Translations under genes and position numbers: made by a program
NCBI GenBank assembly: GCA_949358305.1
Contig: OX442314.1
Coordinates: forward strand, 27,776,001-27,840,000
Direction: 5' to 3'
Length of the DNA: 64,000 nt
Source: Strigamia acuminata
Lineage: Eukaryota
Notes under the pieces: model-generated
The model's input: only the letters and a program-made list of their open reading frames with translations
What the model was told of the DNA's origin: nothing
The model's database searches: none
In this document: positions 2,967-27,200 of the stretch, piece after piece
How positions within the stretch are numbered: the stretch's first letter is position 1
Layout: the number at the start of each line of letters is the position of its first letter

Positions 2967-5900
2967 GTTAGACAGTCAGCAACCCACGTGAATCTTGTGC
3001 AGTATGAAGACCGACTCGACCACCTTCTTCAACGTTTTTGGGAGTTGGAGGCAGTAGGCATTCCCCACGAAACTCTCACCAGCGCCCAGGACGAAGATGA
3101 TCAAGCAGTAGCAAAGTTTAAAGAGTCCATCAACTGGACGGGAGAACGGTACGAGGTACGACTGCCTTGGTTGCTGGACAAATCAGAGTTGGACAGCAAC
3201 TATCAAATTGCACTTAAGAGACTGTGGAATCTTGTTCGCAAGTTTAAACAAAATCCGGACTTGTACCATCGCTATAAGAAGGTTCTGGACGACCAGAAAA
3301 TTGCTGGAATAATCGAAACGGCCCCAGAAGTCGCCAACCAGAGTGGGTGTTACTACCTCCCGCATCGACCAGTAATTCGAGAGCGGCGAAGCACCACAAA
3401 ATTGAGAATAGTCTACGACGCTTCGTCACACGCGCAGAAGAGTCGCTCTCTCAATGACTGCCTGTTTACAGGACCCAATCTCCTACCAGAATTAATCAAC
3501 GCCCTTTTATTTTTCAGACAATATATTGTGGCAATGATTGGCGACATCAAACAGGCATTCCATCAAATTTTGCTGGCTTTGGCTGACCGAGACGCGGTGA
3601 GGTTTCTGTGGATCGCAGACGGATGGGACGTTGAAGGACCAATCGTGTTGGAGATTCTCCGACAAACCAGAGTCCTGTTTGGGGCATCTCCAAGTCCCTA
3701 CCTGTTGAATGGAACAATACAACACCATCTCGAACAATATTCAGATCGTTTTCCCAAATTAATTGTCAAATTGCTAAAGAGATTTTATGTGGATGACTTT
3801 TTAAACAGCGAAAAAACGACAACAGAAGCCATTGACGTCTACAAGAAGACATCAACCATCATGCTCGAGGCCAACATGGAGCTGGTGAAATGGTACAGCA
3901 ATTCCCCAGTGCTACGAGAGCAATTTGCTGTTGACCACCCAACTGCAACGTTCGAAAGTGAGCAAAAGGTGTTGGGCCTGAAGTGGAATGGCGAGAGAGA
4001 CGACTTGTCACTAGAACTCGAGGATGTGAAAGCAACTTTGGAACGTGAATCGAACACTAAACGGCAGGTTATTCAATTGGTTGCGCAGATCTTCGATCCG
4101 TTAGGATTTGCGTCGCCGTTTACAGTTTCAGGAAAGCTGTTTTTCCAGCAGTTGTGGAAATTGCAGATTGGATGGGACAGTCGTCTTCCCCTCGAACTTC
4201 TCGAACAGTGGGAGAAATGGAAAAAGCAGTTGCCATTGTTGGAAAATATTTGCGTGCCACGACATTTTGGCTTGGATGCAGACTTGAATAATCACGAAAT
4301 CCATCTGTTTTGTGATGCGAGCCCCTTAGCGTACGGGGTGGTGGCGTACAATCGTGTGCGTCACCCAAATGGAAGTTGTAATGTATTTTTTATTCTTTCC
4401 AAATGCAGGATCGCGCCAATTAAGACGATTACATTGCCCAGACTCGAGTTGATGGGAGCTTTGCTGCTAGCCAGAATTGCACACAGACTGAAACAATTCA
4501 CGACCGCGAAGGTCACAGCTTGGACAGATTCGACAATTGTTTTGTGTTGGCTAAACGAGAAAAGGAAAGCCATTCCATTCGTAGCCAGGAGAGTGGAAGA
4601 AATCCAAACGCACGTACCTTTTTCGAATTGGCGACACTGTCCAGAAGTCCAAAATCCAGCAGATCTCCTAACACGTGGAATAGATGCAGAGGCGTTGATT
4701 CAAGCGAGTGCGTGGTGGAGTGGCCCCGAGTGGCTCACGAAGGACGAGAATGAATGGCCAAGCAGTAAAATAGACGAGAATAGCGACGAGATCGATTCAG
4801 AGGACTATTTGGCAGCAACAGTCGTGATTCCAGAGCCACCATTGATGGACAAGCCATCAAAATACGGCAGCTGGAGGCGATTAATACGAATAACCGGATG
4901 GGTGAAAAGATTTATCCAAAATAGCAGAGACAAAGTTCGAAATGGCGCACCGTTGACAGTGGATGAATTGTTAGCAGCTGAACTTTATTGGTTTCGTGCA
5001 ATTCAACAATCAAACTTTGCAACAGAACTCACAACTCTCAGCCATCGTCAGGAGTTCGCTCCTAACTCTTTTTTGAACAAAGTGACATGTTATATAGACG
5101 AAAATGGTTTAATGCGATTGAATACCAGATTGCGATGGGCAGCAGTCAACAGCGACTTGAAAAACCCATATGTTTTGCCCTCAAATCACATTTTAACCAC
5201 TCTTATCGTTTCAGAAGCACATCAAAGAATTTTCCACGGTGGACTTGGAGAAACTTTGGCAGAAATTCGTCAAAGGTTCTGGATGCCAAAGTTGAGAAGG
5301 ACAGTAAAAAGCGTGTTGCACAAATGTTTCGTGTGCAAGCGAGTGCAAGGACGTTTCGTGCGCCAGACAGAATCATCATTGCCACCAGATCGTGTCACTC
5401 AAGCAGAGCCATTTCAAGTCGTTGGAATCGATTTCGCTGGCCCCCTGTACCAACGTAGTGGAGAAAAATGCTACATCGTCGTGTTCACGTGTGCGGTTGT
5501 TCGAGCCGTGCACTTGGAATTAGTTTCAAACATGAATACGGAGCAATTCATTCAGGCATTGAAACGATTTTTTGCACGTCGAGGAGTTCCGAGCACGATT
5601 TACTCCGACAATGCGTTGACTTTCAAGCGAACGGAGAAAGAACTTTGCGTTTTGTTGAATGCAGTGAGAGGCGAACAAATGCAGGGATTTCTGACCGAAC
5701 GAGGCGTGAGATGGCAGTATATCGTCGAACGTGCGCCATGGTGGGGTGGCTTTTGGGAGCGTATGGTGAAGTCAACAAAGTCCAGTTTAAAGAAAGTTTT
5801 GGGGAAATCGTCTCTTGACTTTGAAGAGTTAACCACTGTTCTTGCAGAAGTTGAGTCATGCATAAACTCACGCCCCCTCTCTTACGTGTATACAGAAGAC

Positions 5901-6619
5901 GAAAATAATTACCCATTAACTCCAGCTCATTTTTTAGTCGGAAAACGAAGCTGTACATTGCCAGACCCCAGCCAAAAAACCATTCAACAGTTGCCATCGA
6001 CATCAGTCACGATTTTGAAGCGTTGGAAACTCCGTCAACTGAAGTTAGGACATTGGTGGACGCGATGGCAAAAGGAATATCTCACCGAATTGAGAGTTCA
6101 CCGTAAGAATGACAAGAATTCACGAGAAGTTCAACAAGGAGATGTTGTTCTCGTAGAAGAGTTAAACCAGCCCAGGATGACCTGGAAAATAGGAAGAGTC
6201 GTCGAAATATTCCGAGGACGAGACGGTCGTGTTCGTGCATGCGAGATAAAATTATCAGTCGGGAAGAACTTGCGGCGACCCGTACAGCGATTGTGCGTTC
6301 TGGAAACTCACGACATGGAAGAGTTGAGTGGTGATACCACTCTGGCCCCAGTGTAAAAACTGGCGTTGTTAGAAGCAGCAAGGTCGCACGTACTCGAGGG
6401 GAAAAGCACAGCGCAGCGCAGAGAAGCCAACCTGCAGGAGGTGTTTTTGAGTGATATTGGATGACGCGTGACCGGAAGTGCTGTAAAAGTGTCATAAATT
6501 ATCTTGTTTCACCTTTTGTTCCCCTGATTTTGTATTTGCGACCCCCAGAAATTACAATAAACTTGTTCTTAACCCAAAAAAGACATGCTTTATTTCGAGA
6601 ATTCATAAAAGTTAGAACA
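2967..6619 (+). mobile_element. BEL/Pao LTR retrotransposon, 5'-truncated
   Basis: Pao-type pol ORF followed by a purine tract (caggagg) and a candidate 3' LTR (TGT...ACA, 6442-6619) containing AATAAA. Confidence 0.9.
2988..6356 (+). CDS. pol: BEL/Pao polyprotein C-terminal part (RT, RNase H, integrase)
   Basis: YYLPHRPV, KLRIVYDAS, VLFGASPSP, FYVDD (RT); HLFCDAS, NPADLLTRG (RNase H/A17 region); H..H..CFVC, GIDFAGP, YSDNA, GGFWER (integrase). Confidence 0.95.
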   Translation: MNLVQYEDRLDHLLQRFWELEAVGIPHETLTSAQDEDDQAVAKFKESINWTGERYEVRLPWLLDKSELDSNYQIALKRLWNLVRKFKQNPDLYHRYKKVLDDQKIAGIIETAPEVANQSGCYYLPHRPVIRERRSTTKLRIVYDASSHAQKSRSLNDCLFTGPNLLPELINALLFFRQYIVAMIGDIKQAFHQILLALADRDAVRFLWIADGWDVEGPIVLEILRQTRVLFGASPSPYLLNGTIQHHLEQYSDRFPKLIVKLLKRFYVDDFLNSEKTTTEAIDVYKKTSTIMLEANMELVKWYSNSPVLREQFAVDHPTATFESEQKVLGLKWNGERDDLSLELEDVKATLERESNTKRQVIQLVAQIFDPLGFASPFTVSGKLFFQQLWKLQIGWDSRLPLELLEQWEKWKKQLPLLENICVPRHFGLDADLNNHEIHLFCDASPLAYGVVAYNRVRHPNGSCNVFFILSKCRIAPIKTITLPRLELMGALLLARIAHRLKQFTTAKVTAWTDSTIVLCWLNEKRKAIPFVARRVEEIQTHVPFSNWRHCPEVQNPADLLTRGIDAEALIQASAWWSGPEWLTKDENEWPSSKIDENSDEIDSEDYLAATVVIPEPPLMDKPSKYGSWRRLIRITGWVKRFIQNSRDKVRNGAPLTVDELLAAELYWFRAIQQSNFATELTTLSHRQEFAPNSFLNKVTCYIDENGLMRLNTRLRWAAVNSDLKNPYVLPSNHILTTLIVSEAHQRIFHGGLGETLAEIRQRFWMPKLRRTVKSVLHKCFVCKRVQGRFVRQTESSLPPDRVTQAEPFQVVGIDFAGPLYQRSGEKCYIVVFTCAVVRAVHLELVSNMNTEQFIQALKRFFARRGVPSTIYSDNALTFKRTEKELCVLLNAVRGEQMQGFLTERGVRWQYIVERAPWWGGFWERMVKSTKSSLKKVLGKSSLDFEELTTVLAEVESCINSRPLSYVYTEDENNYPLTPAHFLVGKRSCTLPDPSQKTIQQLPSTSVTILKRWKLRQLKLGHWWTRWQKEYLTELRVHRKNDKNSREVQQGDVVLVEELNQPRMTWKIGRVVEIFRGRDGRVRACEIKLSVGKNLRRPVQRLCVLETHDMEELSGDTTLAPV

Positions 6620-6652: not shown

Positions 6653-7149
6653 TTACAAATCGACTTTACGAATCTTCAAAACTGCTTCACTAATCAACAA
6701 ATGATGAAATGTGTTGCAGTCAGTGTTCCGGTTCAACTCCAACATTCTGTAAACGGTTTCGTCGTCCAAATGTTGCAGTTTAATCATCTGCAATAACCGG
6801 ACGGCAGCACGCTCTCTATTACGATCGCCGTTGCATTTCCACTTGAAAATGCACCGAGCAATCGCATTGCAGCGAGAAACGTCGTTGCCACATTCAATTA
6901 AATAACGCATTTCGGGTTCACTCAACAATTGAATGCTTTCATTCCCTGCTAGTGCTCAATGTTACTCAGAAATTGTAATAATTTACAATCTCGTCGGCAG
7001 AGATCGTATTGAGTGGCCAAACTCCAAACTTTGGGGAACGTTTCCACACTGACGTCATCAGCTAATCGGTCCCAGCAATGGCGAAGCAAATCATGAATTC
7101 GCATCAAATGACAGGTGGAAATTAACTCTGTCAGCAGACGGTAAGTCAC
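6653..7149 (-). pseudogene. BTB/BACK-domain-like fragment, copy 1 (frameshifted)
   Basis: Two ORFs join by a 1-nt shift. The pattern L..C...L...V......VW.LA.QY...L.FL....L....L.W...D..R....LL..I.L resembles a BACK domain. A paralogous copy lies at 50496-51005. Confidence 0.5.
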
Positions 7150-7689
7150 GAACCACTCATTACAATTCTCAGAAATCTCATGAATTATTTAAAATACACA
7201 GTAGTAATTACTTGTCAACTTTCACAAAACATCAATATAGCTGCAATGCGGTGTTTTTGAGTGGATCGAGTGCCACGTTTTCACCTCAGTGGAGTTTAAA
7301 ACCGTATGTATTTTTTCATGTCTATATTCAATTGATTATGAGCTTATGAGAGAGATATTCAATCATATTCGAGTTTTGCAAATCTGGATCAAATCATAAT
7401 AAAAAAAAAGCACTGGATTTGCAAAATAACATTCAAATTTATGTGAATCCCACTCTCTCAATACTATCAATAGTCAGTATATCAACAAGAATGTAATTAT
7501 CACACGGCTTTAAGTTCTGTTATTTTTTTAATGAAAGACGTCAGTTGCATTATTTTCGGATTGCTGTGACAACCGAAGCTACGACATTTGCCCGAATGCA
7601 CCGTAACGTGTTTTGAAAGGTTCCTGAATAAACCAATCAGAACGAGCGGTGTAGCATGGGTTGCCATCAAGCAGAGCAAAACTGGTATT

Positions 7690-8400
7690 GTGCTCCCCTA
7701 CCCAGGTAGTATTCCCTTCCACCTTGGCACAAGAGGTGCCCCCTTAGGACTCTGAATTTCATGGGCCCCTAATTCCAAAAATAAAATATTTTGACGGTAT
7801 GGTCTTACCCATGGTAACCTGGGGTGGAACGCATTCTCACGTAAAATAAGACAAGGACTCCAGATTGTTGGGTTGTTGTCCTTTAATCGTTGTCTAGGGA
7901 TTGGAGTCTCCAGTCTACCCACTTGTTGGCGAAGGCACGCCACACCAGCAACTGACCTGTAACACACAGGGAGGGATCCCCATGAATGACGTGGCCGGTT
8001 GGACATAACTATTCTGCTGTACTCACCTGTACAGCCCATGCAACTGCTTATGGAGGCTGTAGTGGTATTGACGTCTCACCACTAAGCGTCGCAGTGGTGA
8101 ATAGGGAGGAAAGCTGAGTCAGCACAGAGCACAACTGCTTTTGCTGGTTTCAGGACTTCACTTCACATGTCTGTCTCAGTTGAGACCCAGCGCTCTTTTC
8201 TCTCCCTGCACCATTCAGCTCCCTCCTTCTCCGTACTGGGTAATCCAACTCCGCGAGGAGGGGTGACCTTGGGGCTGTTGGGCAGAGTGTGGTAGTGCCG
8301 CAAGTCACACTCGGGTGACCAAGCGGCCACAAAATTAAGCAATTGCAAAGGGACACAGTCTATACTGTGCCGAAACTTAGAACTACGGGTGCATCCGGAG
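7690..8400 (-). repeat. GC-rich interspersed repeat (LINE 5'UTR/SINE-like)
   Basis: Near-identical copy at ~51545-52260. A diverged, oppositely oriented relative lies at ~10800-11186 plus ~34380-34610, split by the Gypsy insertion. Confidence 0.6.
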
Positions 8401-9250
8401 TAAGATAAAAGAATGTTTGGTTTGTTTATTTAGATGAGGTAGTGTGAGTTGAGAGTGAGGTATTGTTGTTGTTTGTATTTGCTGTGAGTATTGGTTTGTG
8501 ATCCCAGAATTATGAGATACTCTATGATGTAGGAACATAGATTCTAACTGCCAAAAAGTTTACTAAAATAATGAAATATGGATATACAAGTACTGCTATT
8601 GCTTCTATGTTGCTGTTGCTGTTTTTATAACTTAATATTAATATTTTATGTGTTTACACTTTCAAACCAAAATTATAAATTGATTTGGAAGAAACCTGTG
8701 AGGCATCATTTTGACAAGCTAGAATTAAAAAACACAAAGTCTTGGAGTTGTTATTCAGATTTTAGTTGGATTTTACGAGAATCATACACTGCAAAAAATT
8801 TTGGATTTCCAAAAATAAAGTTATTGGAAATTTAATGGTGAAATTGGATAAATTCCAGTTTGGAAATATAATAGAAAGGAAATGAGAAATATTTCATGGA
8901 AAGTTGAATTTCTGTAAATTTACAACACTGAAAGATGATGTTGTAAGTTTTTGTTAAATGTATGGAAAGCTAATGTAAATTAGGTTTGGAAATTTAAATT
9001 TATGTAAATTTTCAACACTGAAAGATGGTGTTGCAAATTATTGTAATTGTATGGAAAATTAAGTTGGAAACAAATTAATTTTTGAAGTTTTACAACCATA
9101 AACATTTATGGGAAAAACAAATTAAATTAAATAAAAATTTTAATCCAAAAAAACAAGTTTATTAATTTTTCTGATCATTTATGTACCATCGATTGTTAAA
9201 CTACATACAAGTTACGTACTTTTATCTTTTAACCTTGATTTGTAGACAAA

Positions 9251-12200
9251 ATGCCCGCTCCTAAAGCTTTGCGCATCCGTTGGATCCGTATCCGTACTCG
9301 CCAATTTGTGCGACAAGAATTGCAAACTTCACTGTCGGGCAAAGATAGTTTGCAATATATAAACAAAGTTGTCGAGAACACTGGAATAGTTCGTGCACTT
9401 TGGTTGGTTGGTTGGTTGGTTTGTTTCGGCATTTGCGGTTATCAAACATGGGAAAGATTACAATTCTACATGTCTGGACCCTACAAAGTTGAAATTGATT
9501 TTGTTCCAATTCAAGAAAGTAGATTCGCTGAAATTAGACTCATGGCGCTTGATACTCCTCTGATGTCGGAGTACTGGGACAAAATACCAGAAGGTAATTC
9601 AATTGATGATGTAAAAGAAAGAATGAGAGCTTGCAGCATCCCAGTGAGAGGAATCATTTCGAAGAAAGTCAAAGTTAAAAATTACACACACTTGTGGGAG
9701 CATTCCAATATTTCAGAAAATATGCAGCACTCTAAGTTGAGACAAGTAAGTAACCTTGGATAAATAAAAGAGCTATATGAAAAAAATTAGACTTTGACCG
9801 ATACCGGTATCGGTATTGGCTATCGGCCGATATTTCGGTATTCACCGATATCGGATCCGATATTTTTTGGCCTGGCCGACACCGATATTGCCACGTTACT
9901 AAAACGTTTTAGACTAAACGATACGTTTTAGAAACGCTTTTGAAGCAGTATAAATTATATACTGTTTCTAAAACATAAAATAAATTAATAAACGCAATTT
10001 TAATTTAATTTTTTTTTATTTTGGGGGGTGGTGGAGGGGGTCGGACATTTTAATTTTAATATCGGCGCAGGTATCGGTATCGGCCGATATTCGGTTGCCG
10101 ATTATCGGTATAGGCGATACTGCAAAAGATCAATATGGGTCAAAGTCTAAGAAAAATATTGTTGCCAGTATTTTGTTAATTACTACTTTTTCAGGGCAAA
10201 ACTGTATTACTTGAGACCAAGATGAGAAATGGCAATTACACAAACCAAGAGACAACAGTTGAAATAAAATACAAGAATTCTGTTTTCGGCAGTACACTGA
10301 TTGGGAAAACAGGTAAAATTAATATAATCATATTTTCCATTTATTATATAATCTTTTTTGGCTGTATTTTTTTCTTTTTTATTTTTTTTTAGATTTACTA
10401 CCGGTTCAAAAGAGAAAATTGCATATCCTTTTTAAAAAAAATGGAACCTGTGACGTACCAATGGTTGCAGTAAGTTCACTTTGTCAAATTGGGAATTCGT
10501 AATATGTGCAATATTCTTAAGCGCAATTATACCAATCACACTTAAGAATGGTGTTGCATAGTGCAAATATTCGTACCTGTGACGCGTACAAATTACGTAG
10601 GCATGCGTTTGCTCAATTAGCGGATGCCTAAATCGGCCGAAAATGTCGGCGCCGACTCGAAGTCGCTTTGCTTGCAATGTTGGCACTGACTTCTCCCAAT
10701 CATGCATTGACCGCTCCACACTGCAACGATCCGGGTCTTTCTATTTAATATTCGGAAGGAATAATAAATAATCACCTTTGAGATGCCGTATTGAACTTTG
10801 TTACCGCTTGGCCACCCAGGGTCACCTGCGTCACTGCCACACACCACCTTACAGCCCCAAAGTCATCCCCTTTATGGGTGGACTGACCTAGCCTAGGAGA
10901 GGAGGGAGCTGAGTGGTGTGGTGGAGACTCAAGTGTGAGAGGTGAGAGAGAGAGGTTGGTTTGTCTCTCTGTCTGTGACCGGTCGTGCTAGAGAGAGGTG
11001 AGTCTCTCTCCGACTGTGAGGGAGAGAGGAGCTGTGATCATCGAGGGGACAAGAAGTGTCCCGGGCTATCGTGGACTCTGCACTCCTTGCCATTCACCAC
11101 AGCAAAGCTCAGTACTATGGCGGTCTCCTTAGTGCACCCTCCATGAGTGGCTGCATGGGTCATGAGTGAGTACGACATGAATGTTATGTTTGTCGCGCCC
11201 CTACTTCGCTCTTGCAGACTCGTGGGTTGATTACTTAATTCGACTAACTCACTACCGCTTTGTTCGAGCGGTTTACCCAAAGAAATGATTACACAGATAT
11301 AAAAGGTAAAATATAATATAGATTTATTCTGTGGGACAATGTACAGATATATCTTATATATATATATGAAAGGTAAGTAAAAGGTAAATCGGAATGGGTG
11401 ATGGGAATGGAAAGGTAAAGGTAAGATGAAAGCTGGCTGGAATCGGCGAGGTCGTCTGTTGTCTCGTTCGTGTTTAAGATGGCGTCCTCGTTGTGGCAAC
11501 GTGATGTCGTCTTGGGCCGGCGTGGCAATATGGCGTCCTCGACTCGTCTCTGGCTGGTCCTTCGGGCTCACGCTGGTCAGGCGCGAGTGAATGCTTAGTT
11601 AAAAGGCTTACTTCGGTCTGTTGTCTAGGTTTTTGTGTGGTGTCCGGCGATCACACAGCGGCGGACTCTTCTGGCTCCCGGCGGTCACACAGCGGCGGGA
11701 ACGCTCGTCGTTGTTTTACTGCAGTTTAGGCTTGTGCGACCGTTTGTCTGCACAACTCGCTAAACTGGAGTGGTTTTTACTATTTCTAGCTGGTGTGCTA
11801 AAATAGTGTGGTAATCTTATCTCGCAGGTTACTCTGCGGAGTTTGACACTGACCAAACGTACTCACGGTAAATTGTCCTTTGTCCTTGGTCAATCCCAGT
11901 ATATTTACTTGGGCCTGATCTTGTAGGACGACGGGTTTTACGTGTGTTTCTCGTTTGATGGTTGTGTTGGTTCTGCCCGCTCAGTGCAAGGCACATTCCT
12001 TTGCACAAAGCGGGGTTGACAGGTGACCGGAATCACCCAATGGTGGGGTGGACGAGCCATCCCCACTCCCTCAGGGCAGACGCCTGTCCATTGACTAGAT
12101 GTCAATGCACTGAGGGAAGGGAGACGCGCTTGCGGCTCCCCTTACACTCGAAACGAGGTCACGAGAGAAACTCTTCGTTGACCCCGGTCCAGTCGGGTCA

Positions 12201-15200
12201 CAACACTTCCCCCTCCGAGCTCAGACCGTGGGGCTGAGCGATCACTTCTTTTTTGGGGGACCCGACACTGAGTCCGTCACCTGGGCGTAACTCACTCCAG
12301 GGACAGGCGGTTGAGTGCCGGGTGGCGCGGATAGATCGCCTACTAGCGCCGAGGACCGATCGCGGGGGTCCTCATGCTCCGTAATGAAACATAGTGCATG
12401 GCCGTCAACTGGCTCATGCGGGGCACGCGTCCTCTCGTGCAACCAAACGCTCGGGATGTAGGCGGAGAAGCCGGTGTTCGTATGCCGGATGGCATTGGCT
12501 TCCGCTGGCGTCACTGGCGCACGGTGGGCTCTCAGCAACCTCTGGTGGAAGATGAGGTCTTTAGTCTTCCGTATCTGGTTGTGAAGCCAGATGAAGACCG
12601 ATTTGCCTTTGTCCCGCTGTGCGAGGATAAACCTCCTGGTCGCCGTTGTCATCGAAAGATGGGGAAACTCGTTGATGATTCGCCCATAATAGTCTGGTGG
12701 AGGCGGTGCCGGCTTCGGCTTCTGGGTGGCCGCGGGAATCACGGCTTGCGTCGTTGTCGCCGCTCGGGCCGGTGGGGTCCCGGGCGGTGTCGGCTTCGTT
12801 TGCTCGACGGACCTGACGGGTGGCGTTCGGCACAGTAAGCGCTTTGGTTTACCCGCCACTTCGAACAGGGCGGGTCCTTGCGGGGACATCTTCGCAGGCA
12901 TCGGTGGCGGAATCGGAACTCCGCTCGTCGGCGAGATCATCATTTCCACTTCCTCTGCCGGTTCTTCCGTCTGGACGGTCAAGGCGCGCAGTTGTTGGGT
13001 GGGCGCCGCTGTCCAGGTGGCGGAGGTGTAACGAAACGCCGTGCTTCGTAACTTGTACCCTTCAAATTCTGGGTTTACCACATCCCTGGTTAGCTCGTAG
13101 CGAGTCAACACAGGGTCGGGCAGAATGGAGCTCCACTCTGCGAGGAGTGCACGGGGAACCTGTACACCCTCTCTGTCCACGGCAGACCATGCGGCCATCG
13201 ACTGACGCCCTTCTCCGAAGAGTGCTGGGGTTAGCAGCTGCATCATGACCTTGGTCAATGATAACTGTAGGCTGCGACGATTCACTGGATTCGATCGCTC
13301 TGAATCCTCAGTGAAGGCACGCGAGAGCTTACTCATCATCGTGATTGCCCATTCGATAAAATATCGCTGTGTTTGATCCACACCTCGCAAGGCAGGTGCG
13401 GAGACTCTTGGGTCTTCCATCACGAAACGAAACGCTGAGAGCTCGGAGATAGTCGGGTTGGCGGCTTCTCTCGCGAGTCGCGCTTCTTCGTCTCGCCTCT
13501 CGAAGAACAGGGCAGAGGAACCGGGTCGGGGTCGGCTCGGCCTGTAAATGTCGGTCAAATTGTTTCGACATTCCTGCAAAATGCTCTGTCCGACGGGGAG
13601 AAGGACTGAGCGGTCGGTGGGTAAATCCGGCGGATCGCTCGAATTCAGCAACGACGGCGGCGGCAGGTTCGGAGGCGGCTGCGTCTTGGTCGGCAGCGTT
13701 GGCGTCGGCAGCGGTGGTGGTGGCTGCGTCGGCGGTGGTGGCGTCTCCGTCGTCTGCACCCCAGTCATTGCGACTTGGGGCGCCGGGAGATGTTGTTCGG
13801 AGCTTGAGGGCTGTACGATGGCGGTTGGCATGCCATCGGGTCGCGGTCGCGAATTTATGTAGTCTGCGAGCCACCTTGCCACCTCGTGTGGGGTCACCAT
13901 CCCGTCGGTGACAACACCCATCTTCCTGGCGTGTTTCATAGTTGGATCGAAACGTGTCAGTTTTGTCCGCTTCATCTGGGTCAGAATCTCGCGAAGGTCC
14001 CGCGTATCTGCCGCTGGGACGCTTCGCTCACCTGACTGGCTACCACTTCGTCGACCCGCTCTTTTGGAGATGTAGGCGGGTTCGGGGATGGGACGGCCCC
14101 GAGCTTCGCACCTCGCGAAGTATCGCTCCTTGCGATCTCTTCTCCGCTGCTCGCGATGAGTCAGCGGACGTCTAGAAGTGCTGGGACGGGAGACTCGCTC
14201 TTCGTCGCCAGACATCCAAACCTCCTTGCACTCCTTACCGTCTTTAATCTGACGGTTTACGAAAATTCGCGGTCGGGAATACTGCGAAGGGTCACGCACC
14301 GTACTAGTGGATGGCCCAGCTTCGTTGCCTTCAGTCGTGTTTTGAATGACACGCTGCTTCTTGGTTGTCACCGGGGAACGCGACTGGCTGTTCCCGGCGC
14401 CTTTGGAGCGCTTGCGCTTCCGCGGGTAGCTGCTTTTGGGCCCCAAAATCCCCAGGTGGTGGAGCTGCCACATCTCGGCTTGGGACGTTAAAACTCCCAT
14501 CCGAGGTCTCCACTGGGGCGTACTCTCCCCCAATCGCAGCCTCTCAAACCACAGATGAATATCATCCGCGGTCATCCCCTCGTTTTGGAGGATGCGCTCG
14601 GCCACTGCCGTAGCGGTATCCACCAGCTGTTGCCTATACTGCTGATAGATGGCCTCACGGGCCTCTTCTGTCTCGGCTGCTTGCCACGCATACAGCACGT
14701 GTTCCTCCGCCGGATTGCCAGTGTACTGACTTGACAATCCGGGGTGGAAAATTGGCGATTTCGGGTCATCGTCACGAGCTAACTCTGTGGCGATGCCTTC
14801 GCGCATCCCCTCCGGGAACGTGTCCAGGAGCGTGCAGTCTCGTACCCAACGTCGGGCGATGCATCGGGAATGTAGTATTCGCAGGCGCCAAGGGTCGGCG
14901 TCCTCGCCGAAACATCGTCGGTAAAATTCGGGCAGCGCGCCTCGAAATATCCCGCCACGAGCGATGCAAGCGGGGTCTAATGGTCCCCATGTTCTACGTA
15001 ATGCCATCTGGAAGGATGGAGAAATAAACAATTAATAAAAAGTTAATATTAAATACGTAGATAAATGGTTGGTTTCGAGGGACGTTGCCGATACGTGCAG
15101 CCGTCCGTCGAGACCGATTCCTGTCTATCGGTGCAAACGTAGGACGAATTGTCCCTCGTCGGATAGAAAAAGAGAAGTCATCACGTAAAAAATCTGTCTC

Positions 15201-18200
15201 ATGTCCAAAACGCACAGCGAGACGGAATCGAGCCTTTAATCCGGATTTTTATCATCAGATTTTACTTCACATTAATTCTAACGTTAATTAGAACATTACT
15301 AATAATTAAATTAATAATTATCAGTCATTCGTAAAAAGAATTCGTCGGGTGTAAATTATTACTAAAAATGCACAATGAAAGTGCTTGTCGAAATTGTATT
15401 AAATAAATAAATCCAATAAAGAATTATTCCGAAGTCGGACTTTGTCTAATTTTTTTTTTACAAAAGTTAAAGTCAAATTAAATTTATCCAACACACCAAA
15501 AAATTCATCGTACGAATGTTAAGTTGCATCAATTCGATGCGTCAAATTACTTGTGGAGAAAATATTCTTTTTACAGAATATTCTCCCCTTGTCATAAAAT
15601 TATTTATGGCTCGAGCCCATTGTCTCGCTCGTGACTCATGTCATGAGGAATTTTCGAGACGCGAGGCGACGTGAAGTCTGCGATCGCATCCCGAAAACAA
15701 ATTAACAAGGAAAAAATACGATCGTGTGAGCGATCGCGGTTAATAATCAGTTATACGCTATTGCGAGTGCAAAGCACTCATGTCAGGTATTAGTCAAACA
15801 AAATTTCTTCTTCAGCAGCACGGAAATAATTCTCGTGCGCCAATGCCGACTTCTACCTGATCGGGTGGAACTTGGTTTACATCGTGGTCCCAATTTGCCT
15901 CATCCTCGTGCTCGATGGCAAGCACGTCGTTCTCTTCCTCGTCCATGGCGAGGAGCGCGCACAAAAAGCTCAATCACGATTAAAAAGGATGATAAAACTA
16001 TCTCAAAAACTCGGTAAAAAACTCGGTAAAAATGTTAAAAACGAGGATCACGCACGGACGCAGCGATCAGCTGTGAAAAGCGGAAGTCCGTGTGAACACG
16101 AGGTAATCGCGATGGATTCTGGGTAATATACTCCAGAACCCGGGTGTTTGAGACTAGTGCGCACTTACCCGTGCGCATGTTACGCTACGGGTCTCCTTGG
16201 TTTTCACTCCCGTGCGCGATTGCTGCTACGGTGTCTTTTGCACGCGGTTTCCGACCCGTGGCGACGATTTTCCTACGGGTCCCGCATTTCACGCCATCTC
16301 GTGACGTGAATTCGACCGATATCCGCTTTGTTGGACTTAGCGAAATTTTTGTAGAGTCTCGGATTTTGATGGCTAGCGCTGTCGATCGATCAATTTTTTT
16401 TTTTTTTTTTTTTTTTGTTTTTCAGCGTCGCCATCGACTCGTAACGTTTTTTACTCCTTTCCTACGACCTTTCCGTCTTTTATAAATGGATTACTTCTAC
16501 GGGGCCGCAGGTGATGAGTCGAGACAGGTACGACGTTTTTTGTTTTTAGTGTCTGTACCTCCTCATTATTGTTTTCTTTTTTATCCGTGTTTTTTGTGTT
16601 TGTTTCAGGAGTTTCTCCTGTTTCCCCCCCGACCAAAATTTGATCCGGAACGGATTCAACGATCTCGTTGACCGGAGGTGAAGGGGCGTCGAAATACTCC
16701 TCGTTGTCACTTGGCGGTGCTTTTTCCGACTCGCCAGCGAACATATCGACGATTTGGCCGTCAGTTTTTGACTTGACTTGGCCCTTGGCCCACATTTCTT
16801 GCGGGAATTCCGGAATGTACGGAGTTAACTCTCGTACTTGTATCGATTTATGCTCGGTATTGTCCTCGAGCTTACGTAATTTATACGCGTTACCGCTGTG
16901 ACGGTGACGACCACAACTCCCATTTAACAATGGTACCGGGAAGAGATCGCAATAAATAAACAGTGAATACAATACGAGATAAATACAAGACAGTTTATTG
17001 TTGGCAAACAATATGGATGAGCTAAATTATACATAGGACTAATGCCGACATTTGGCAAGTTAAATCAGCTATTAAACTATACAAAGAATTGGCCAACTGG
17101 CCCTAGAATAATATCACTACGGGTCTGGAATATGGGAGCGGTTTCCCCATCGCTCGACCTGATTATAGATGTCATCTTAAGCCGGATGGCTGTGTCCTGG
17201 AGTCCGATACGGCTTCGCTGGTTTCCTTGGTTCGCTGTGTAAACTATCGCACGTCGATAAATCGAATGATCTGAGCATTGCGGTTGACTTTGTCTGCACC
17301 GCCACAACTTTGGGAGGATATTGGTGTAAGTAAATGTATTCATTTACTTATCAATATTCCACTTATGAATTATATTTAATTCATATCGTTGTGAATTCTT
17401 ATTTAGATATTTCGGGAATAAGTTGTCGTCAACTTATCGGTTATATTGAGTTCAATATGAGATTAAGTCTTCTGACTTGATTTTGGTCCAACTGGTTGTC
17501 GAGTTTAAGTTTTGCTGTTATAAATAAAATGAAGATTAAGCTTCCCGTCGCAACACACAATTGCCATCGATTAGAATATACGCCTTGCCATGCAGAACGG
17601 TATCAAGCGTCCCCGGCGTCGCAGCACGGTCGTCCATCGAGTGGTTGACGGTACCACGTACACAGGGGTCGATAGCTCGCGGCTCCGCACAGCAGTTTTA
17701 TCTCTCGCGGTACTAATAATAGACCGACTGCTTTGGCATCGAATACCATGAGAATCAGCTTGCCAAACACTTGGTGCTACTCGTGGTTACTGTAAAACAG
17801 ACTGCTTTGGCACCATCAGGTGAAGGAACCGATTCTCAACAATACCGATGCTACTCGTGGTAACGGAATACGTTCATACCGAAAAAGACAACTTGGTCCT
17901 GTCCGGAGGATACTGAATTGCACAACGGCGGGTTCTCCTTCGGCGTCGCAACCGTAGACTGTAACATTTATGCAACATAATAATCCCAGCACTTCGACTT
18001 CAATTGCCGGCGGTGGCATGATTCTGTAGAATCATGCAACGGTTCTTTGCGAATAAATCAACAAAGAACCAAAAGGTTTTTTTACGTGAACAACGAATCA
18101 TATTTCTTAAGTAACAATACCAAACAGAAAATAATCAAACAGAGCTGCGGAATGGCCGATTGTTTGGGTTTATATAACCTGACTGGATTTAAGGATTAAT

Positions 18201-21200
18201 CCAGTCATCCAATTGGAACATGGGTTCCACGAATCCCTCCAATCCCGTATCACCGGAAGTGGATACGGAGGAGCATTTATGCAAATTATGCTAATCCTTG
18301 TTACAACCGGAACTGGATACCCAGGACCGGAAATGGGTTCCACCAATCAGATTGATCGGTTGACCGATTGATCGCTAAACATTCTGTCCCGCAGAAATGG
18401 AAGTTACATTGTATTTAACAATGTCAGATACTTAATATATATTTATATTAATATTTAACACAATTTATTCACTTGATTAAATATACGTTTATATTTAATC
18501 ATGAGGTTTTCAAGTTCGTATTCGAATTTATCGCTAATTGCGATCGCGCCATCTAGTGGCAATATGGAGCATTGACAAATGCGGGTTTTAGCAGACGAAT
18601 CTTCGTAATTATGCCGTGATACTTTAGTATCATGTGGAAATTAGTGTTTATTCTTAATAAACGAACATCTTTGTATTTGAAACATCATAAATGACTTTAT
18701 TCTAGACATTTATCAGTTTTACACAGAATATTGTAAAAATACCATCATATTGGCGCAACAGCGCTTTCTTGATAGAAAATAGGCATTTATAGCCATTGTA
18801 AACCGTCATACATCCCCCTTAATAACACAACTATATAATATTTTATAGAGTTTTCGTTATTCTCCTAATTAGCATAAATGCTATTTTCGGACTTGATGTA
18901 TCTTGGAGATACCGTGACTTCCAATTTCGAATTTGAGTTTACATAAACTAACTTGAATTATCTAAGTTCTGATTTTCTGCCGAAATAATCTTTTCTAATA
19001 GCCTAAATTCAAGTCCAGAATTTATTTCCAAGTCTTCTTTTTGAAGAAACTTTCGTCATACATAAAATCATCATTTGTGTTATCACAAAATATTTATTTC
19101 ATATGCCTAGTCAGATGTATCGCTATAAATATACAATAAATAGCTTTTAGATGATAAGAGTTGACAATTTAAGAATCAAAATGTCCCCCTTAATTGTCAT
19201 GACCGGAGTCACTTGGTATTCTTTGTACAATTGACTAATTTTAATTTAAACTAGTTGTCTTTTAATACTGTAATATTACTTTTCGAGAATTGTTAATTTT
19301 AACTTTATATTTTGTCCCCCTTTTCTTTAGAAGAGAGGTCATGATTTTTAGAAGAGGATTTTCTGTTTACACTATAATCGGGGAATCTTTGTGTATCATA
19401 TCATGTTAATCAACATGATTCTTTGCTAAATATTGAGCTCGCATATTTGCGAATTTCCGAGATCTCTCAGCCTGCTGTACTGATTTCTTTCGACGTTTTT
19501 CCTTTGGGCAGTTACATACAGTGTACTGACTTGGCAGTGTAAATGACCGTGACGACCCAACTTTTTGTTTTAGGTCATCTCTGGAAAACCATACATGAAT
19601 GGGACCCTCATTGGAAAACCATACGTGGAAAGGACCCATATTTGGAATTGTGAAATCCCGCAACAAACGAGGGGATCTATATTTGACTCTAAGTCGTGGA
19701 ACTGATGATTGGAAACCTGGGTTTTCAGTCAGTTTTTGAACATGTTGGTTTGTACTTGAAGTTTCTTCATCACCAGCTGGACTTGGTGACCGAAAACGCT
19801 TTTTTGAAGTTCTTAATTCCTCTCGTTGAGATGAATTATTCTGGATATTGCAGGGTTGCTTTCCAGACGCAAATTGTTGTATCTCCGTCAGATTGACGAC
19901 TGGGACGGGTTTTAGTCGTTGGTTACGGTATTGATTTCGAAATACGAATTGTTGCGCTTCGTTTATATTTTTAAATTCAGCTGAATTTAACTGGTATTGT
20001 TTACAATACTGTTCGAATTGATACCGGATCTCCCGTGGGTTAGTCAAAAAACTTTCTTTTTTAGGTTTAAAATCATTCTCATTATCGTGTTGGTAATACT
20101 TTTTCAAGGGAAAAGTTTGCTTGACTTTTTTTCGATTTGAAATGGGCGTTAGGTAGAATTGTCTTGGCTGGGGACTCTTCTTGGTAGACAAATCATACGT
20201 CCGCAAACATGAGTTTGTGATCGGCGATCGGGCACGTTGTTGTACGTTATTTGACTGCAAATGTTTGTTTGGAGTCCGAATATCTTTCCTTTGCGTTGAT
20301 ATTGGTGGCCCAAAACTTTTGTTTACGGTTCCCAATTCTTTTGATAGCGGTAGGTTAATCGACAGATTAAGGCTAGCCACATATCGTTGTGCTTCAGCTG
20401 GATTAGCATATCGAACTGAAATTAGCTGATCTCGATTGTAAACGAGTTTTAATTTGTTCTGAACAACCGACTGGTTAGTTAACGAACTCTCTGGATGAGA
20501 ATTATTAGGTTTATAATTCTCTTCCCCCTTATCTACCGAATTAGGTGGTTTAAACTTTTCTAACTTAGATCCCCTACTGGATGTTTGAAACATAGTATGA
20601 GAATCTTGATTCACTAAGTTTCGGCTGTATGTTTGTGGATTCCGTACTGGATCTTGATGTGAAGATTGAGATTGGGTACGATCTCGCCAGTTCCTAGCTT
20701 TTACATAGTCTGAAGCTTCGATTATATTTTTAAACTTGGTTTTATCCAGTCCATGACGATTACAATACAGAGTAAAATGATCGGGAATCTTTTCTGTTTG
20801 ATCGCCAAGTGGTACAGAACTTAAATTTAAGTTTGTCTGCTTATTATTTCCTTTTGGATCGATCATATTCAATGGTTTTTGAGCCATAAAAAAATTCAAA
20901 ATCTGACGATTTTAATTCTTTAATTTATAAAGAAGACGAATATAATACACTTTTCAACAAGAAACACTTCTAAACTTTACTTTTGACAAAATAAAATTAA
21001 ACTTCGCGTTTGTTTGACACGTGTTAGCTTTTGCAGGTTACACGGCACACAAAATTCGAATCGTGACTGAAATCGGGACGGCGTGGTCAAGATGACTCTG
21101 GAACACGTCTTCTGGTCTGGTCTGGATGCGAATGATCAGTATCTGATCTGGTCCTCCTTTAATAGCAGGGGGCTGGGGATCCCTAGATCTCCCAACTTCT

Positions 21201-24200
21201 GATTGGCGGATGTTAGTGTCGGCCAATGGTATAAAGGACGTTACATCTATTTAGTAGTTCTCTACTAAGTCCGTTCCCTTCGAGATTCAATTTTACCGAT
21301 AAAATAAAATTCCTTCGGGAAGACATTCGTAAAATATTGTATTTTTCAAATGAAAATAAAATAAACTTACTTCAATCTTCTTGAACTTTGGGATTTTTAC
21401 CAATCCAAATAATTAAATAACTTTTCTTCAAAAAATATTTTTCTTTGATTATTCCGTTTAGTGTGTAATATCATTACAACCACAGTTTTAATAAAGTTTT
21501 CTCAAACTCTCAATTTTTCTTATTCTTATTCAATTATCGTTCAAATAATCATTCCTTTGTAATTGAAATCTATTTTCGATTCCCAACATTGTGTATTCAT
21601 TTCCAATAGGAAGAATAATTTGACCAAGTCTTTACTTTTTCGGGTTTAAATTCCATTTTTCGAGTGTGAAAAAATAAATTTTCACCATCCATCTCCCCCT
21701 TTTTAACAAATTTTTTTAACAAATAAAAATTCGTTAAAATTCTTTAAATTTGTTTTGCGAGAAAAATTATCTAATTCTCTAATCTTCCAAAAGAAAATAT
21801 TCGAAATTTTACTTTAAACGATAAAGTTATTGGTACAAATGTGTACTTGTTTTTCGGGAGAAAACTATTCGACAATCCTTTAGACTTTTGGGTAAAAATT
21901 ATTCATCAAATCTTTCTTTTTTGATGACAATTGCTTTGATTTTTCGAAAGAAAATATCTAGCTAAATTCCACTTTTCCTGAGCGGACAATTGTTTTCACA
22001 ATTAGTTATTCCTTTGCGATATTTACGAAGGACGTGTCTTTGATTATTCGTTTTAATAATTTTCGTCCCCCTTATCTCTAATAACGAGATGTTTTTGCAG
22101 AGATCTTTTATCTTTTGAATGAAAGAATATTTAAATCTCAATTGTCGTAAATACCTTCATCTGCTGCAGCATTTCCTCAATTTGAACTTTTCAAATGAAA
22201 AGACAAATCTGGAGAACTTTCACTGTCAAACTTCTATTCCTATCGCGCCAAAATTCGTAATTCACTGGTTTGGAATTCCGTATAACACGTGACACAATAA
22301 CAGTATCGATGTCACAATTAAGCAGTTTACTACTCGGTCCGCGCGAGGACATGTAAATTACTTTTTTCCGATAAAAATAATTTTTCTTTGAAAAATATTT
22401 GAAATTGATTTTTCACAACTACTTTTGAATGAAATAAAATGAAGTTATTCCAACTTTTCGTTAATTGCTCACACATAACATTCCCTTTACTGTGGGATTT
22501 GCATCGAAATTCCATTTTTAAAGAACCTTTCTTTTACTTATCGCAAATAAAACATATTCAATCGTTTTTCTGATTAAACTTTAACACGTAAATTACGAAC
22601 GAAATATATGATGACATTCCATTAACCTTTAGGAAAATTGACTAAATTCTTAATTTTTAGAGAAAAATAATGTATCTAGAATCTTTCCTTTTCCGAATAA
22701 AATCTATGTTCAAAATAGAAGATAAATCTTGTGCAATTCTTAGTTTTTTCGAATGGAAAAATACAACTTTTCATCAGCGGTGATTTATTTGATTTTTCCG
22801 AAAGAAAAATAATTACTTTGAAACTTATTTTCTTCGTTTAAATCAGCTATCTGATTTTAAAGCTTCAATCCAATCAAAAAATATTCGCTCCGTAAATATT
22901 TCATGTGGCAAAGTTCATAGCCACAAATGGATTTGTTATTCCGGTTTTAAGAAATCATGTGGGAAAATGTCCGATTAGATTACTAAAAATATTCGTTGTT
23001 TTTCAAACAGCTAAATTTCATTTAGAAATTCTCAAAATTTGGGAGACCCAAATATCGTTGGAAACTTAAAACACTTGTTAAATTTCCGAAAGGAAAGATT
23101 GAATGAAATCCTTTTACTTTTCCGAGGGAAAGCGTTTATCGTGATTCGTAACTTTCAATGTAAAAAATACTATTCTATGTGGTCGGCAACTTCATTCGCC
23201 GCCATTTTATATTTTCTTAATTTCCATTGTCCCGAAGGAAAAAATGTACTTTTTGTGAAAATAGTTAATTCCTTCAAATAAAGGTAATATTCATTTCGAT
23301 TTGCAAATCTTTTCTGCGAAATGGAGTGTGTTGTTTTTCTCCAACAACTAAATTATCTTTGGTACCGATGGCAGTGGAAAAATTAGTTCGCGACACTTAA
23401 ATAAATCTCTACGAACCTTCTGTAACATTTCTCCGCTGTCTTTTATCTGTTGTCCGCCATAATTTCCAAGCATTCGTTCGCACCTTGCGTTGAAGGTTTG
23501 AGTAGCTTCCCTGCTGCGTTTGATACGGAGATCGACGCGTATTGCTATGGCGCGTGGTCGCTGGCTATCGGTGTCGACGTACAGTTACAAGAAACTTAAT
23601 TTCTTGTAAATATTTCCAAATAGTTGCGGTGTTTTCTTCGTTTTAACTTTTCAGGTGGAAAGATAAATTCGTAAGAAGTCCGCCTTCTAAACTTGTATGT
23701 TTTTAGCTTTTCGAAATAAAACAAACTTCGAAAAAAATATCTGTATTCTTATTTCACTCGAAACTTTTTTTTGATTTCTTATTTAAAATACTTCGTATTC
23801 CTTAAATTGTCGAACGAAAATAGTAAAGAGAGTTCACTAAACGTTTCCATTTCGTCAGTTTAACTTTTCACATGAAAATATAAACTGAAAATCTATTTGT
23901 CTGTTTTAACTAAAATTTTTTTGTTAATATCGGATTCAAGATTCGCTTTTGCAATTCGATCGAATTAATTTGCAACCTATTTCAGTGATCGTGTGATAGG
24001 TCTATAACTTCCGAAATTCCTAGTTAAAGGACAGTTTTGGTGTTTCTCAAGAAAATAAACATGGTTTGAAACTGGTCTGTTTTTTAACTAAATCTTTTAG
24101 TTAAATATTTATCTCAAAATTCACTTTTACAATTCTATCGAATTTAATTGCAACCTAATCTCGGTGGGACCTCCACGTGTGAGATTAGGTGGTAGTCTTT

Positions 24201-27200
24201 GAAATCCCTAAAATCTTCAAACGAAAATAATGAAGGAAAATCTACTACGTATTTCTATTTCATCAGTTTAACTTCTTCACATGGAAATATAAACTGAGAA
24301 TTTAATCTGTCTATTTTTAACTTAAATCTTTTAGTTAAATATTTATCTCCAATATTCACTGTTGCAATTCAATCGAATTTAATTGCAACCTAATCTCGGT
24401 GGGACCTCCACGTGTGAGATTAGGTGGTAGTCTTTGAAATCCCTAAAATCTTCAAACGAAAATAATGAAGGAAAATCTACTACGTATTTCTATTTCATCA
24501 GTTTAACTTCTTCACATGGAAATATAAACTGAGAATTTAATCTGTCTATTTTTAACTTAAATCTTTTAGTTAAATATTTATCTCCAATATTCACTGTTGC
24601 AATTCAATCGAATTTAATTGCAACCTAATCTCGGTGGGACCTCCACGTGTGACGGTGACGACCACAACTCCCATTTAACAATGGTACCGGGAAGAGATCG
24701 CAATAAATAAACAGTGAATACAATACGAGATAAATACAAGACAGTTTATTGTTGGCAAACAATATGGATGAGCTAAATTATACATAGGACTAATGCCGAC
24801 ATTTGGCAAGTTAAATCAGCTATTAAACTATACAAAGAATTGGCCAACTGGCCCTAGAATAATATCACTACGGGTCTGGAATATGGGAGCGGTTTCCCCA
24901 TCGCTCGACCTGATTATAGATGTCATCTTAAGCCGGATGGCTGTGTCCTGGAGTCCGATACGGCTTCGCTGGTTTCCTTGGTTCGCTGTGTAAACTATCG
25001 CACGTCGATAAATCGAATGATCTGAGCATTGCGGTTGACTTTGTCTGCACCGCCACAACTTTGGGAGGATATTGGTGTAAGTAAATGTATTCATTTACTT
25101 ATCAATATTCCACTTATGAATTATATTTAATTCATATCGTTGTGAATTCTTATTTAGATATTTCGGGAATAAGTTGTCGTCAACTTATCGGTTATATTGA
25201 GTTCAATATGAGATTAAGTCTTCTGACTTGATTTTGGTCCAACTGGTTGTCGAGTTTAAGTTTTGCTGTTATAAATAAAATGAAGATTAAGCTTCCCGTC
25301 GCAACACACAATTGCCATCGATTAGAATATACGCCTTGCCATGCAGAACGGTATCAAGCGTCCCCGGCGTCGCAGCACGGTCGTCCATCGAGTGGTTGAC
25401 GGTACCACGTACACAGGGGTCGATAGCTCGCGGCTCCGCACAGCAGTTTTATCTCTCGCGGTACTAATAATAGACCGACTGCTTTGGCATCGAATACCAT
25501 GAGAATCAGCTTGCCAAACACTTGGTGCTACTCGTGGTTACTGTAAAACAGACTGCTTTGGCACCATCAGGTGAAGGAACCGATTCTCAACAATACCGAT
25601 GCTACTCGTGGTAACGGAATACGTTCATACCGAAAAAGACAACTTGGTCCTGTCCGGAGGATACTGAATTGCACAACGGCGGGTTCTCCTTCGGCGTCGC
25701 AACCGTAGACTGTAACATTTATGCAACATAATAATCCCAGCACTTCGACTTCAATTGCCGGCGGTGGCATGATTCTGTAGAATCATGCAACGGTTCTTTG
25801 CGAATAAATCAACAAAGAACCAAAAGGTTTTTTTACGTGAACAACGAATCATATTTCTTAAGTAACAATACCAAACAGAAAATAATCAAACAGAGCTGCG
25901 GAATGGCCGATTGTTTGGGTTTATATAACCTGACTGGATTTAAGGATTAATCCAGTCATCCAATTGGAACATGGGTTCCACGAATCCCTCCAATCCCGTA
26001 TCACCGGAAGTGGATACGGAGGAGCATTTATGCAAATTATGCTAATCCTTGTTACAACCGGAACTGGATACCCAGGACCGGAAATGGGTTCCACCAATCA
26101 GATTGATCGGTTGACCGATTGATCGCTAAACATTCTGTCCCGCAGAAATGGAAGTTACATTGTATTTAACAATGTCAGATACTTAATATATATTTATATT
26201 AATATTTAACACAATTTATTCACTTGATTAAATATACGTTTATATTTAATCATGAGGTTTTCAAGTTCGTATTCGAATTTATCGCTAATTGCGATCGCGC
26301 CATCTAGTGGCAATATGGAGCATTGACAAATGCGGGTTTTAGCAGACGAATCTTCGTAATTATGCCGTGATACTTTAGTATCATGTGGAAATTAGTGTTT
26401 ATTCTTAATAAACGAACATCTTTGTATTTGAAACATCATAAATGACTTTATTCTAGACATTTATCAGTTTTACACAGAATATTGTAAAAATACCATCATA
26501 TTGGCGCAACAGCGCTTTCTTGATAGAAAATAGGCATTTATAGCCATTGTAAACCGTCATACCGCCATGCTTGCCGATGATCACATACGGACCATCTCTC
26601 TTGTCGGCCAAGCTGGCGGTGATTCCTCTCGCTGCATTTGAGAGGGTGTGTGCATCTTTCCACACCAAATCATTGATCTCGAAATTCACGAATTTTCCAC
26701 CGCTTTTATCTTGTAAAATGCGGTCGCGCATGTTAAAAATGTGCGCCATCATATGTTTGTATGTGCTCGAAATTGTTTGCTCCAATTTATACACATACTC
26801 ATGTGGTTTCTCTGGGTCCACCACATTTACCGACTCTGCCACTCGCGGGTCCCAAGGCACTCGTAGCTCTCGGGCGAAGTTGAGGTAGGCCGGAGAAAAA
26901 TCTCTCGTCCTCGAGACTGTTGTTCGTATGCTGAACGCGATCTCCCTCAAGTATTCATCCCACCGATTGTGGATGTCAGTGAATATACTTAATGCATATT
27001 TGATATCCCTGTTGAGTCGCTCAACGGGATTTGTTCTGGGGTTGTAGGTCGAAGTATGTGACGCCACAATCCCGAACTTCTCACAAAATTTACCCCAAAT
27101 TTTCGAGATAAATTGGGGTCCGTTATCGGATATTATTTTACGTGGAAATCCGTAACGTAACGCCGCGTCGTAGATACATTCAACGATTTTCTCTGCTGAA

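Follow-up and report, generated by a model that had tools for sequence, protein, structure and literature searches.

What kind of product does a retrotransposon encode in its env slot when the protein found there carries no membrane anchor? This question is raised by a 64,000-nt stretch of Strigamia acuminata DNA (assembly GCA_949358305.1, contig OX442314.1, positions 27,776,001 to 27,840,000, forward strand), hereafter the window, in whose coordinates all positions are given. On its minus strand lies a long terminal repeat (LTR) retrotransposon with a third open reading frame (ORF3) in the interval that separates pol from the 3' LTR. Very probably ORF3 is a working accessory gene of one sort or another, and not an env. 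Our favoured reading, to which we give a probability of about 0.35, is that it encodes a nuclear factor comparable with Rev of human immunodeficiency virus (HIV) and CERV of the nematode element Cer1, and that this factor lets the intron-containing genomic RNA (gRNA) of the element escape splicing and be exported. The firm part of the case consists of the anatomy of the element, purifying selection on both coding parts of the gene and the absence of a membrane anchor.

The element is a Ty3/Gypsy LTR retrotransposon with paired LTRs, a target-site duplication, a primer-binding site, a polypurine tract, gag, and pol with the protease, reverse transcriptase (RT), RNase H and integrase domains. 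The 5' LTR (33361-34375, 1015 bp, TG...CA) and the 3' LTR (11191-12205, with AATAAA at 11328) are 99.6% identical, differing at 4 of 1015 positions as two adjacent pairs, and by this divergence the insertion is young. Both element ends are flanked by an AACA duplication. The primer-binding site (33341-33358), which we take to resemble the 3' end of tRNA-Pro, lies two bases past the 5' LTR, and the polypurine tract (12206-12216) adjoins the 3' LTR. In Pfam searches, gag (30205-33288, 1027 aa) gave the capsid-like Retrotrans_gag (E 3e-5) and zf-CCHC (E 3e-6), and the main part of pol (26563-30262) gave its domains in the order protease, RT, RNase H, integrase. In the window copy a nested LTR element (16897-26562, minus strand, 1915-bp LTRs 100% identical) interrupts the integrase tail, and the rest of pol runs as an open frame from 16896 down to a stop at 16451; three contigs of one sequencing run (X2) diverge from the window sequence at 16896, the boundary of the nested insertion. 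The closest named relatives of pol are animal sequences with at most 44% identity, and pol found no match among the viral contigs searched. Two distant loci with 38-39% identity (L001 and L002) contained no large ORF 3' of pol within their available DNA. A second Gypsy element in the window (59382-64000, plus strand) has a long single-knuckle gag and is 67% alike over 322 nt of RT; its 3' part, including the would-be ORF3 position, falls beyond the window edge.

The main exon of ORF3 (12242-15007, minus strand, 921 codons, 59% GC) ends with its stop 36 nt before the 3' LTR, and its length exceeds chance, the longest stop-free run in 300 shuffles being 297 codons. Family variants were taken from contigs of two public runs of one study, which are possibly the window's own source and not independent, and the selection counts are single-site differences between contigs rather than aligned genomic copies. 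Differences with a partial share point to several family copies. Among the 40 of 182 variants in a first listing, 21 fell in ORF3, with 12 synonymous, 9 non-synonymous and no stops. One more variant from a second listing brought the counts to 13 synonymous versus 9 non-synonymous, where 25-29% synonymous changes are expected, and the ratio of non-synonymous to synonymous polymorphism (pN/pS) was 0.23-0.29 (P 0.0007-0.003). Purifying selection acts on ORF3 across family copies, so the dN/dS-type check proposed in an earlier note on this DNA, run here as pN/pS, found the frame kept in other copies. None of the indels listed (12 of 43 rows in the first listing, 12 of 30 in the second) lay in ORF3 or in the mini-exon described below (P 0.07); in the second listing the intron accounted for 8 of the 12, and the other 4 lay upstream.

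The ORF3 product is not an Env. Its highest 19-residue Kyte-Doolittle mean is 1.07, so that a transmembrane (TM) segment is absent; no signal peptide is apparent by hydropathy, the N-terminus being acidic; there are no furin sites of the form R-x-K/R-R; and Pfam returned no Env family row. The description of ORF3 as a non-envelope protein lacking a TM segment, given in the earlier note, was thus borne out. No similarity of ORF3 to gag, to the ORF of the nested element or to the rest of the window was detected.

The second coding part is a mini-exon of 30 codons (15857-15946, minus strand, 90 nt) with 12 acidic and no basic residues. It starts in the context CTCGCCATGG and ends at CAG/GTAGAA, after which a gap of 849 nt with 36.5% GC leads to the acceptor TTCCAG/ATG at 15008/15007. 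The junction is in phase 0 on both sides, and 30 + 921 codons give 951 aa. The positions of the mini-exon, gap and ORF that the earlier note had mapped were all correct on re-check, as were the Kozak-type context, the acidic translation, the donor and its phase, the AT-rich gap and the acceptor of the 921-aa ORF. The spacer variants comprise all 37 substitutions with a share of at least 2% in 14750-16480. Five of them lie in the mini-exon, and all five are third-position and synonymous (P 0.0001-0.0008), compared with 0/5 and 1/5 in the other two frames. In the 14 codons past the donor, read on in the unspliced frame, 3 of 4 variants are non-synonymous (Fisher P 0.048 versus the mini-exon). 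Coding constraint therefore ends at the proposed donor. In the same frame a stop precedes the mini-exon ATG by 9 codons, so that this ATG is the start. The mini-exon at 15946-15857 is coding and under purifying selection.

The GC content at third codon positions (GC3) reaches 0.64 for ORF3 and 0.63 for the mini-exon, compared with 0.52 for gag and 0.50 for pol; the similarity of the first two values indicates that the two exons belong together, and the difference from gag and pol hints at another origin of ORF3. A codon-position score gave the mini-exon 16.3 bits and the in-frame tail -1.1, with another frame of the mini-exon at 13.5. Splice sites were ranked with a rough frequency matrix, in which the acceptor at 15008 came first of 934 AG sites on the minus strand of the element, and the mini-exon donor was weak (39 of 653). 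Splicing of the mini-exon to ORF3 is a prediction. The DNA contigs of the two runs contained neither a 15007/15857 nor a 16070/16169 joint among the joints listed (1 in one listing, 15 of 30 in the other); contig assembly loses rare forms, and intron-less copies could escape detection. In addition, one X2 contig represents a diverged copy that matches 15819-15916 and 16082-16191, with different sequence in place of window 15916-16082, so that the end of the mini-exon and the leader-intron region are preserved in it.

Transcription may begin further upstream than was first thought. The earlier note had placed a promoter near 16125 and 16081 on the basis of TATA-like and ETS-like motifs. Both strings are present, but the TATA-like string at 16131-16124 does not match TATAWA, of which the spacer contains none, and on the minus strand the ETS-like string at 16081-16087 forms the pyrimidine tract that belongs to an acceptor at 16071. 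This acceptor (rank 3 of 934) and the top-ranked donor at 16168 (1 of 653) delimit a predicted leader intron of 98 nt (16071-16168, minus strand). Since both motifs lie between these sites, they are likely to sit inside the leader intron, and the transcription start would fall either upstream of 16169 or within the 5' LTR. The region 16027-16164 had no substitutions versus 3.9 expected at the intron rate (P ~0.02), which fits a promoter and splice signals equally. Just upstream are three dyad repeats, CCGTAG-N11/12-CACGGG (16168-16278, minus strand), which are candidate protein-binding sites or RNA hairpins. The pattern, picked after inspection, has three matches in the window, all at 16278-16168, and contains none of the 37 listed substitutions; the LTR lacks it even with a relaxed pattern. 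The lack of a good acceptor in 16170-16896 (best score -0.6) favours an internal promoter within 16450-16170 that produces a first exon; as a possible alternative, the 5' LTR would be spliced to 16070.

The predicted ORF3 protein contains ~11% Pro and 9 scattered Cys, and its helical regions are divided by Pro-rich linkers. Four K[KR]x[KR] motifs were counted, versus 0.67 in shuffles (P ~0.003). Nuclear localisation signal (NLS)-like motifs of this monopartite type are at residues 197-202, 216 and 346, an Arg-rich region at 279-302 includes a bipartite-like Arg tract (279-295), and Leu-rich strings resembling nuclear export signals (NES) begin at 150 (150-159), 179 and 847. The motif excess upholds the earlier view of ORF3 as nuclear in that the motifs are there; the localisation itself, read from motifs alone, is probable. 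Single-sequence models reached moderate confidence only for helices near 100-160 and 284-302, and 8 Arg within 17 residues fall in one of these two segments modelled near a predicted local distance difference test (pLDDT) value of 70. We take a resemblance to SWIB at residues 373-385 to be presumptive, Pfam giving no support for it.

No relative of ORF3 was found in Pfam with the whole protein and four parts, in PHROGs, in a word search of 5.8 billion sequences, in a phmmer search of 1.84 billion, in the ESM Atlas with the whole protein and residues 1-400, in PDB sequences, or among viral and metagenome contigs. Filamin-C, which came up in the PDB sequences (E 0.21), was rejected as a chance match. 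Foldseek with the ORF3 models gave TM-scores of ~0.05 on a viral library and nothing at E 0.001 in the PDB. A match to a known env or host gene, which would have spoken against the earlier proposal, was thus sought by both sequence and fold, and none appeared. The gag core of the element (580-1027), used as a control, was likewise without a match, which suggests that the orphan status of ORF3 reflects sampling as much as novelty.

The predicted 849-nt intron (15008-15856, minus strand) is strongly folded. Its z-score was -9.4 against global shuffles, and with block shuffles it was -7.9 in sense and -4.5 in antisense, the lowest among nine stretches; the eight other stretches ranged from -6.2 to +0.4 with block shuffles, a control that itself tends to be negative. 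Among 24 intron variants, 3 break a predicted pair versus 7.4 expected (P 0.013). The intron is covered by contigs in both runs, and an Rfam search of it returned a single chance row and no real match. At its 5' end, a predicted stem-loop (15783-15860, minus strand) pairs the mini-exon donor with 15795-15783. The complementarity of 11 of 13 positions is matched at only 2 of 636 GT sites, and the donor bases are predicted to be paired with a probability near 1. The z-score of this hairpin was -3.65.

These features suggest how an export factor might work in this element. The spliced mRNA would consist of the leader, from which the 98-nt intron is removed, the exon 16070-15857, from which the 849-nt intron is removed, and the main exon up to the LTR poly(A) site, giving a protein of ~951 aa. 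The NLS-like motifs may import this protein into the nucleus, where the folded intron, confined to unspliced RNA, would serve as its predicted response element. The Arg-rich helix at 279-302 is a candidate RNA binder, and the Leu-rich motif at 150-159 is a candidate export signal. The stem over the weak donor is predicted to leave some RNA unspliced, so that gag-pol RNA could be made and copied with the intron. Despite the strong splice sites inside the element, its unspliced RNA has to be exported and packaged. The anatomy is likely to combine a cis part, the hidden weak donor and the folded intron, with a trans part, a probably nuclear Arg- and Leu-rich protein. A role in RNA export, which the earlier note did not name, accounts for more of this anatomy and has a published precedent. 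Of the accessory gene that the note had interpreted as an internally promoted transactivator or anti-silencing factor, the selected non-Env frame and the coding mini-exon remain, and the promoter position at 16125/16081 is weakened. It is rather doubtful, though conceivable, that the locus holds a full regulatory cassette evolved independently of complex retroviruses and Cer1, comprising a gene of two introns that is read from an internal promoter and encodes a novel nuclear protein of 951 aa, a response element in the folded RNA of an intron, a donor hairpin switch balancing regulator mRNA and genomic RNA, and exon skipping by which some forms contain an acidic activation module and others lack it.

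Several results weigh against the export reading. Among the 849-nt controls, the flank stretch 46000-46848 reached a z-score of -6.2, and the intron is unexceptional when folded in 120-nt windows (-0.1 to -2.9). The donor hairpin folds equally well in antisense (-4.2); all 6 of its variants leave the pairs intact, but taken alone this gives a P of 0.055, and the hairpin alone could retain the intron without any ORF3 protein. NES-like patterns and Arg tracts are frequent by chance, and gag is also Arg-rich. The ORF3 models are of low confidence overall (mean pLDDT 40 and 38), and searches by sequence and by fold linked ORF3 neither to Rev nor to CERV nor to an RNA-binding family. Both runs behind the variants belong to one study, and one listing covered 40 of its 182 rows. 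Lastly, a transactivator is the better fit for the acidic N-terminus with its Trp and for the dyad repeats.

A transactivator is the main rival, and we regard it as a real if tentative possibility. ORF3 would then be a DNA-binding protein with an internal promoter, similar to Tas, that binds the dyad repeats, uses the acidic mini-exon peptide as an activation domain and turns on the LTR. The mini-exon has the expected composition (12 acidic and no basic residues among its 30, Trp present), the dyad repeats are free of listed substitutions, and with only poor acceptor scores upstream, the exon that ends at 16169 would be the first. Env-slot genes with an internal promoter are also known, as env of Oikopleura Tor3b/4b is possibly transcribed from one in pol or the spacer (PMC4402516). 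However, the LTR on which such a protein should act has no dyad repeat, neither Pfam nor Foldseek found a DNA-binding fold, the spacer has no TATAWA, an ATG at 16178 would create a short upstream frame in the leader, and the folded intron is left unexplained. We think it unlikely that ORF3 is an anti-silencing protein or a chromatin- or integration-targeting scaffold directed against host piRNA or heterochromatin control. Its modular build, ~11% Pro, several NLS-like motifs and two PxVx[LM] strings (410, 852) would suit such a protein, as would the lack of relatives expected of a fast-evolving conflict protein; but amino-acid change is not in excess (pN/pS <0.3), there is a single WG/GW, the motifs are short and common, and gag is equally without relatives.

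An action in the cytoplasm or the particle, as a capsid adaptor or in trafficking or non-Env transmission, possibly also through a Gag-ORF3 splice fusion, seems improbable to us. The env slot itself, one PPxY at residue 770 and a phase-0 fit to the ORF3 acceptor at three of the four top-ranking gag donors speak for it, whereas the absence of a TM or signal-like segment, the excess of NLS-like motifs, the lack of similarity to gag and a mini-exon that brings its own selected start speak against it. Still less probable is a captured host or viral enzyme that has diverged beyond recognition, as might be proposed from the GDSL and DEDDy ORF3s of bdelloids. A different source is suggested by the 59% GC and by the GC3 of 0.64, as against 0.52 for gag and 0.50 for pol, and faint rows for GDSL_2 (E 0.11) and an exonuclease (E 0.096) were obtained; yet both rows lie on the same helical stretch, GDSL_2 scored 13.5 bits against a cut-off of 32.9, there is neither a GDS motif nor a DEDDy Pfam row, and much of the chain is low-complexity linker. 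The least probable account is that the mini-exon is not joined to ORF3 and is a separate small ORF (sORF) of 44 aa or neutral sequence, with ORF3 starting at 15007. Its donor is indeed weak (39 of 653), the unspliced frame does reach 44 aa and an ATG immediately follows the acceptor, but selection ends at the donor, the codon score falls from 16.3 bits to -1.1 in the tail (13.5 in another exon frame), and the 44-aa peptide is acidic and has no TM segment, unlike the fusogen sORF2. The ORF3 protein is large enough that it could serve more than one of the roles proposed here.

Other features of the window were recorded alongside these analyses. The nested LTR element (16897-26562, minus strand) has no gag or pol domain and contains one orphan ORF of 493 aa (20887-19406) that has no Pfam match and within which a 34-aa unit is repeated at 35% identity (E 9e-8); TATA- and CCAAT-like motifs were seen by eye near 21230-21150, and 235-bp tandem repeats at 24115-24652 copy its primer-binding site. 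Two successive tektin-like frames (42547-45027, plus strand; Pfam E 7e-19 and 2e-15), split by a stop, are flanked by 312-bp direct repeats that are 99.7% alike, and this locus is likely to be a host retrocopy carried between LTR-like repeats. Within window 45993-46848, the 849-nt control stretch (46000-46848) formed a much stronger fold than its shuffles (z -6.2). A BEL/Pao pol lies at 2955-6356 (plus strand; Peptidase_A17 E 1e-47); taken with the tektin-like frames and the animal relatives of pol, it suggests that the host is an animal from a lineage with little sequence sampling. A 2.4-kb repeat occurs at 6680-9062 and 50568-52946 (93% alike), and 54616-55387 has 300-bp inverted arms, 99% complementary, resembling a miniature inverted-repeat transposable element (MITE).

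How LTR retrotransposons pass intron-containing genomic RNA through host splicing and export control is largely an open question. If the export reading is true, this element would join Cer1 as an unrelated second example, with its donor mapped and with a hairpin and a candidate response element; it would suggest that the env slot repeatedly houses Rev- or Tas-like regulators and that 'env-like' ORFs lacking a TM segment are mislabelled. If ORF3 is instead a transactivator or a silencing antagonist, it would still represent a new protein family in host-transposon conflict. Extra ORFs in the env slot are already known (including PMC6431247, PMC5408684, PMC4402516 and PMC7264820). In the open-access literature, outside which most subscription papers lie, we found no report of a comparably large nuclear gene, self-contained and with several exons, in the spacer of an animal Gypsy element, and Cer1 CERV was the sole export factor encoded by an LTR retrotransposon that came up.

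Among known systems, several differ from ORF3 in kind. Bdelloid rotifer LTR elements carry family-specific ORF3s in the env slot, reportedly made from spliced messages as a rule, but these can be recognised as proteins of the GDSL, DEDDy, coiled-coil or TM type, whereas ORF3 here has no such marks (PMC5408684). The Env of the Tor elements is a membrane glycoprotein from an unspliced internal-promoter mRNA, in contrast to the soluble protein and predicted introns of the present gene (PMC4402516). Among the additional ORFs of the plant elements Grande (gene23), Retand and Bagy2, the nuclear ones are antisense and the sense ones are env-like with a TM segment, while ORF3 is sense, lacks a TM segment and occurs in an animal (PMC7264820). 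The MDG1-group sORF2 is a short transmembrane protein and differs in this from the acidic 44-aa unspliced frame of the mini-exon (10.1101/2025.03.14.642691).

Other systems resemble ORF3 in how they may work. HIV Rev and its response element (RRE) combine a spliced regulatory gene 3' of pol, Arg- and Leu-rich motifs and a structured intronic RNA, all of which have predicted counterparts here, and foamy-virus Tas is a transactivator with an internal promoter, which ORF3 may have as well; neither Rev nor Tas is homologous to ORF3, which is far larger and belongs to a retrotransposon without env. The closest case is CERV of Cer1 in C. elegans, a spliced nuclear protein of 517 aa from 5 exons whose C-terminal half comes from the env-slot ORF and which is required for the export of Cer1 gRNA (PMC10309623). 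A search of 1.84 billion sequences with phmmer found no CERV homology, the presence of CERV in that collection being uncertain, and CERV was compared by its description; ORF3, with its 9 scattered Cys, has no visible counterpart of the cysteine loop (M domain) of CERV, which also weighs against an export role. CERV shares its N-terminal exons with gag, whereas ORF3 has a separate selected ATG exon in the pol-ORF3 spacer and reaches ~951 aa, although gag also contains donors in phase 0. Common to both is a non-Env ORF in the env slot with an NLS, here as motifs only (PMC10309623). The likeness is thus one of working and not of membership, in that export was shown for CERV and is inferred here for ORF3.

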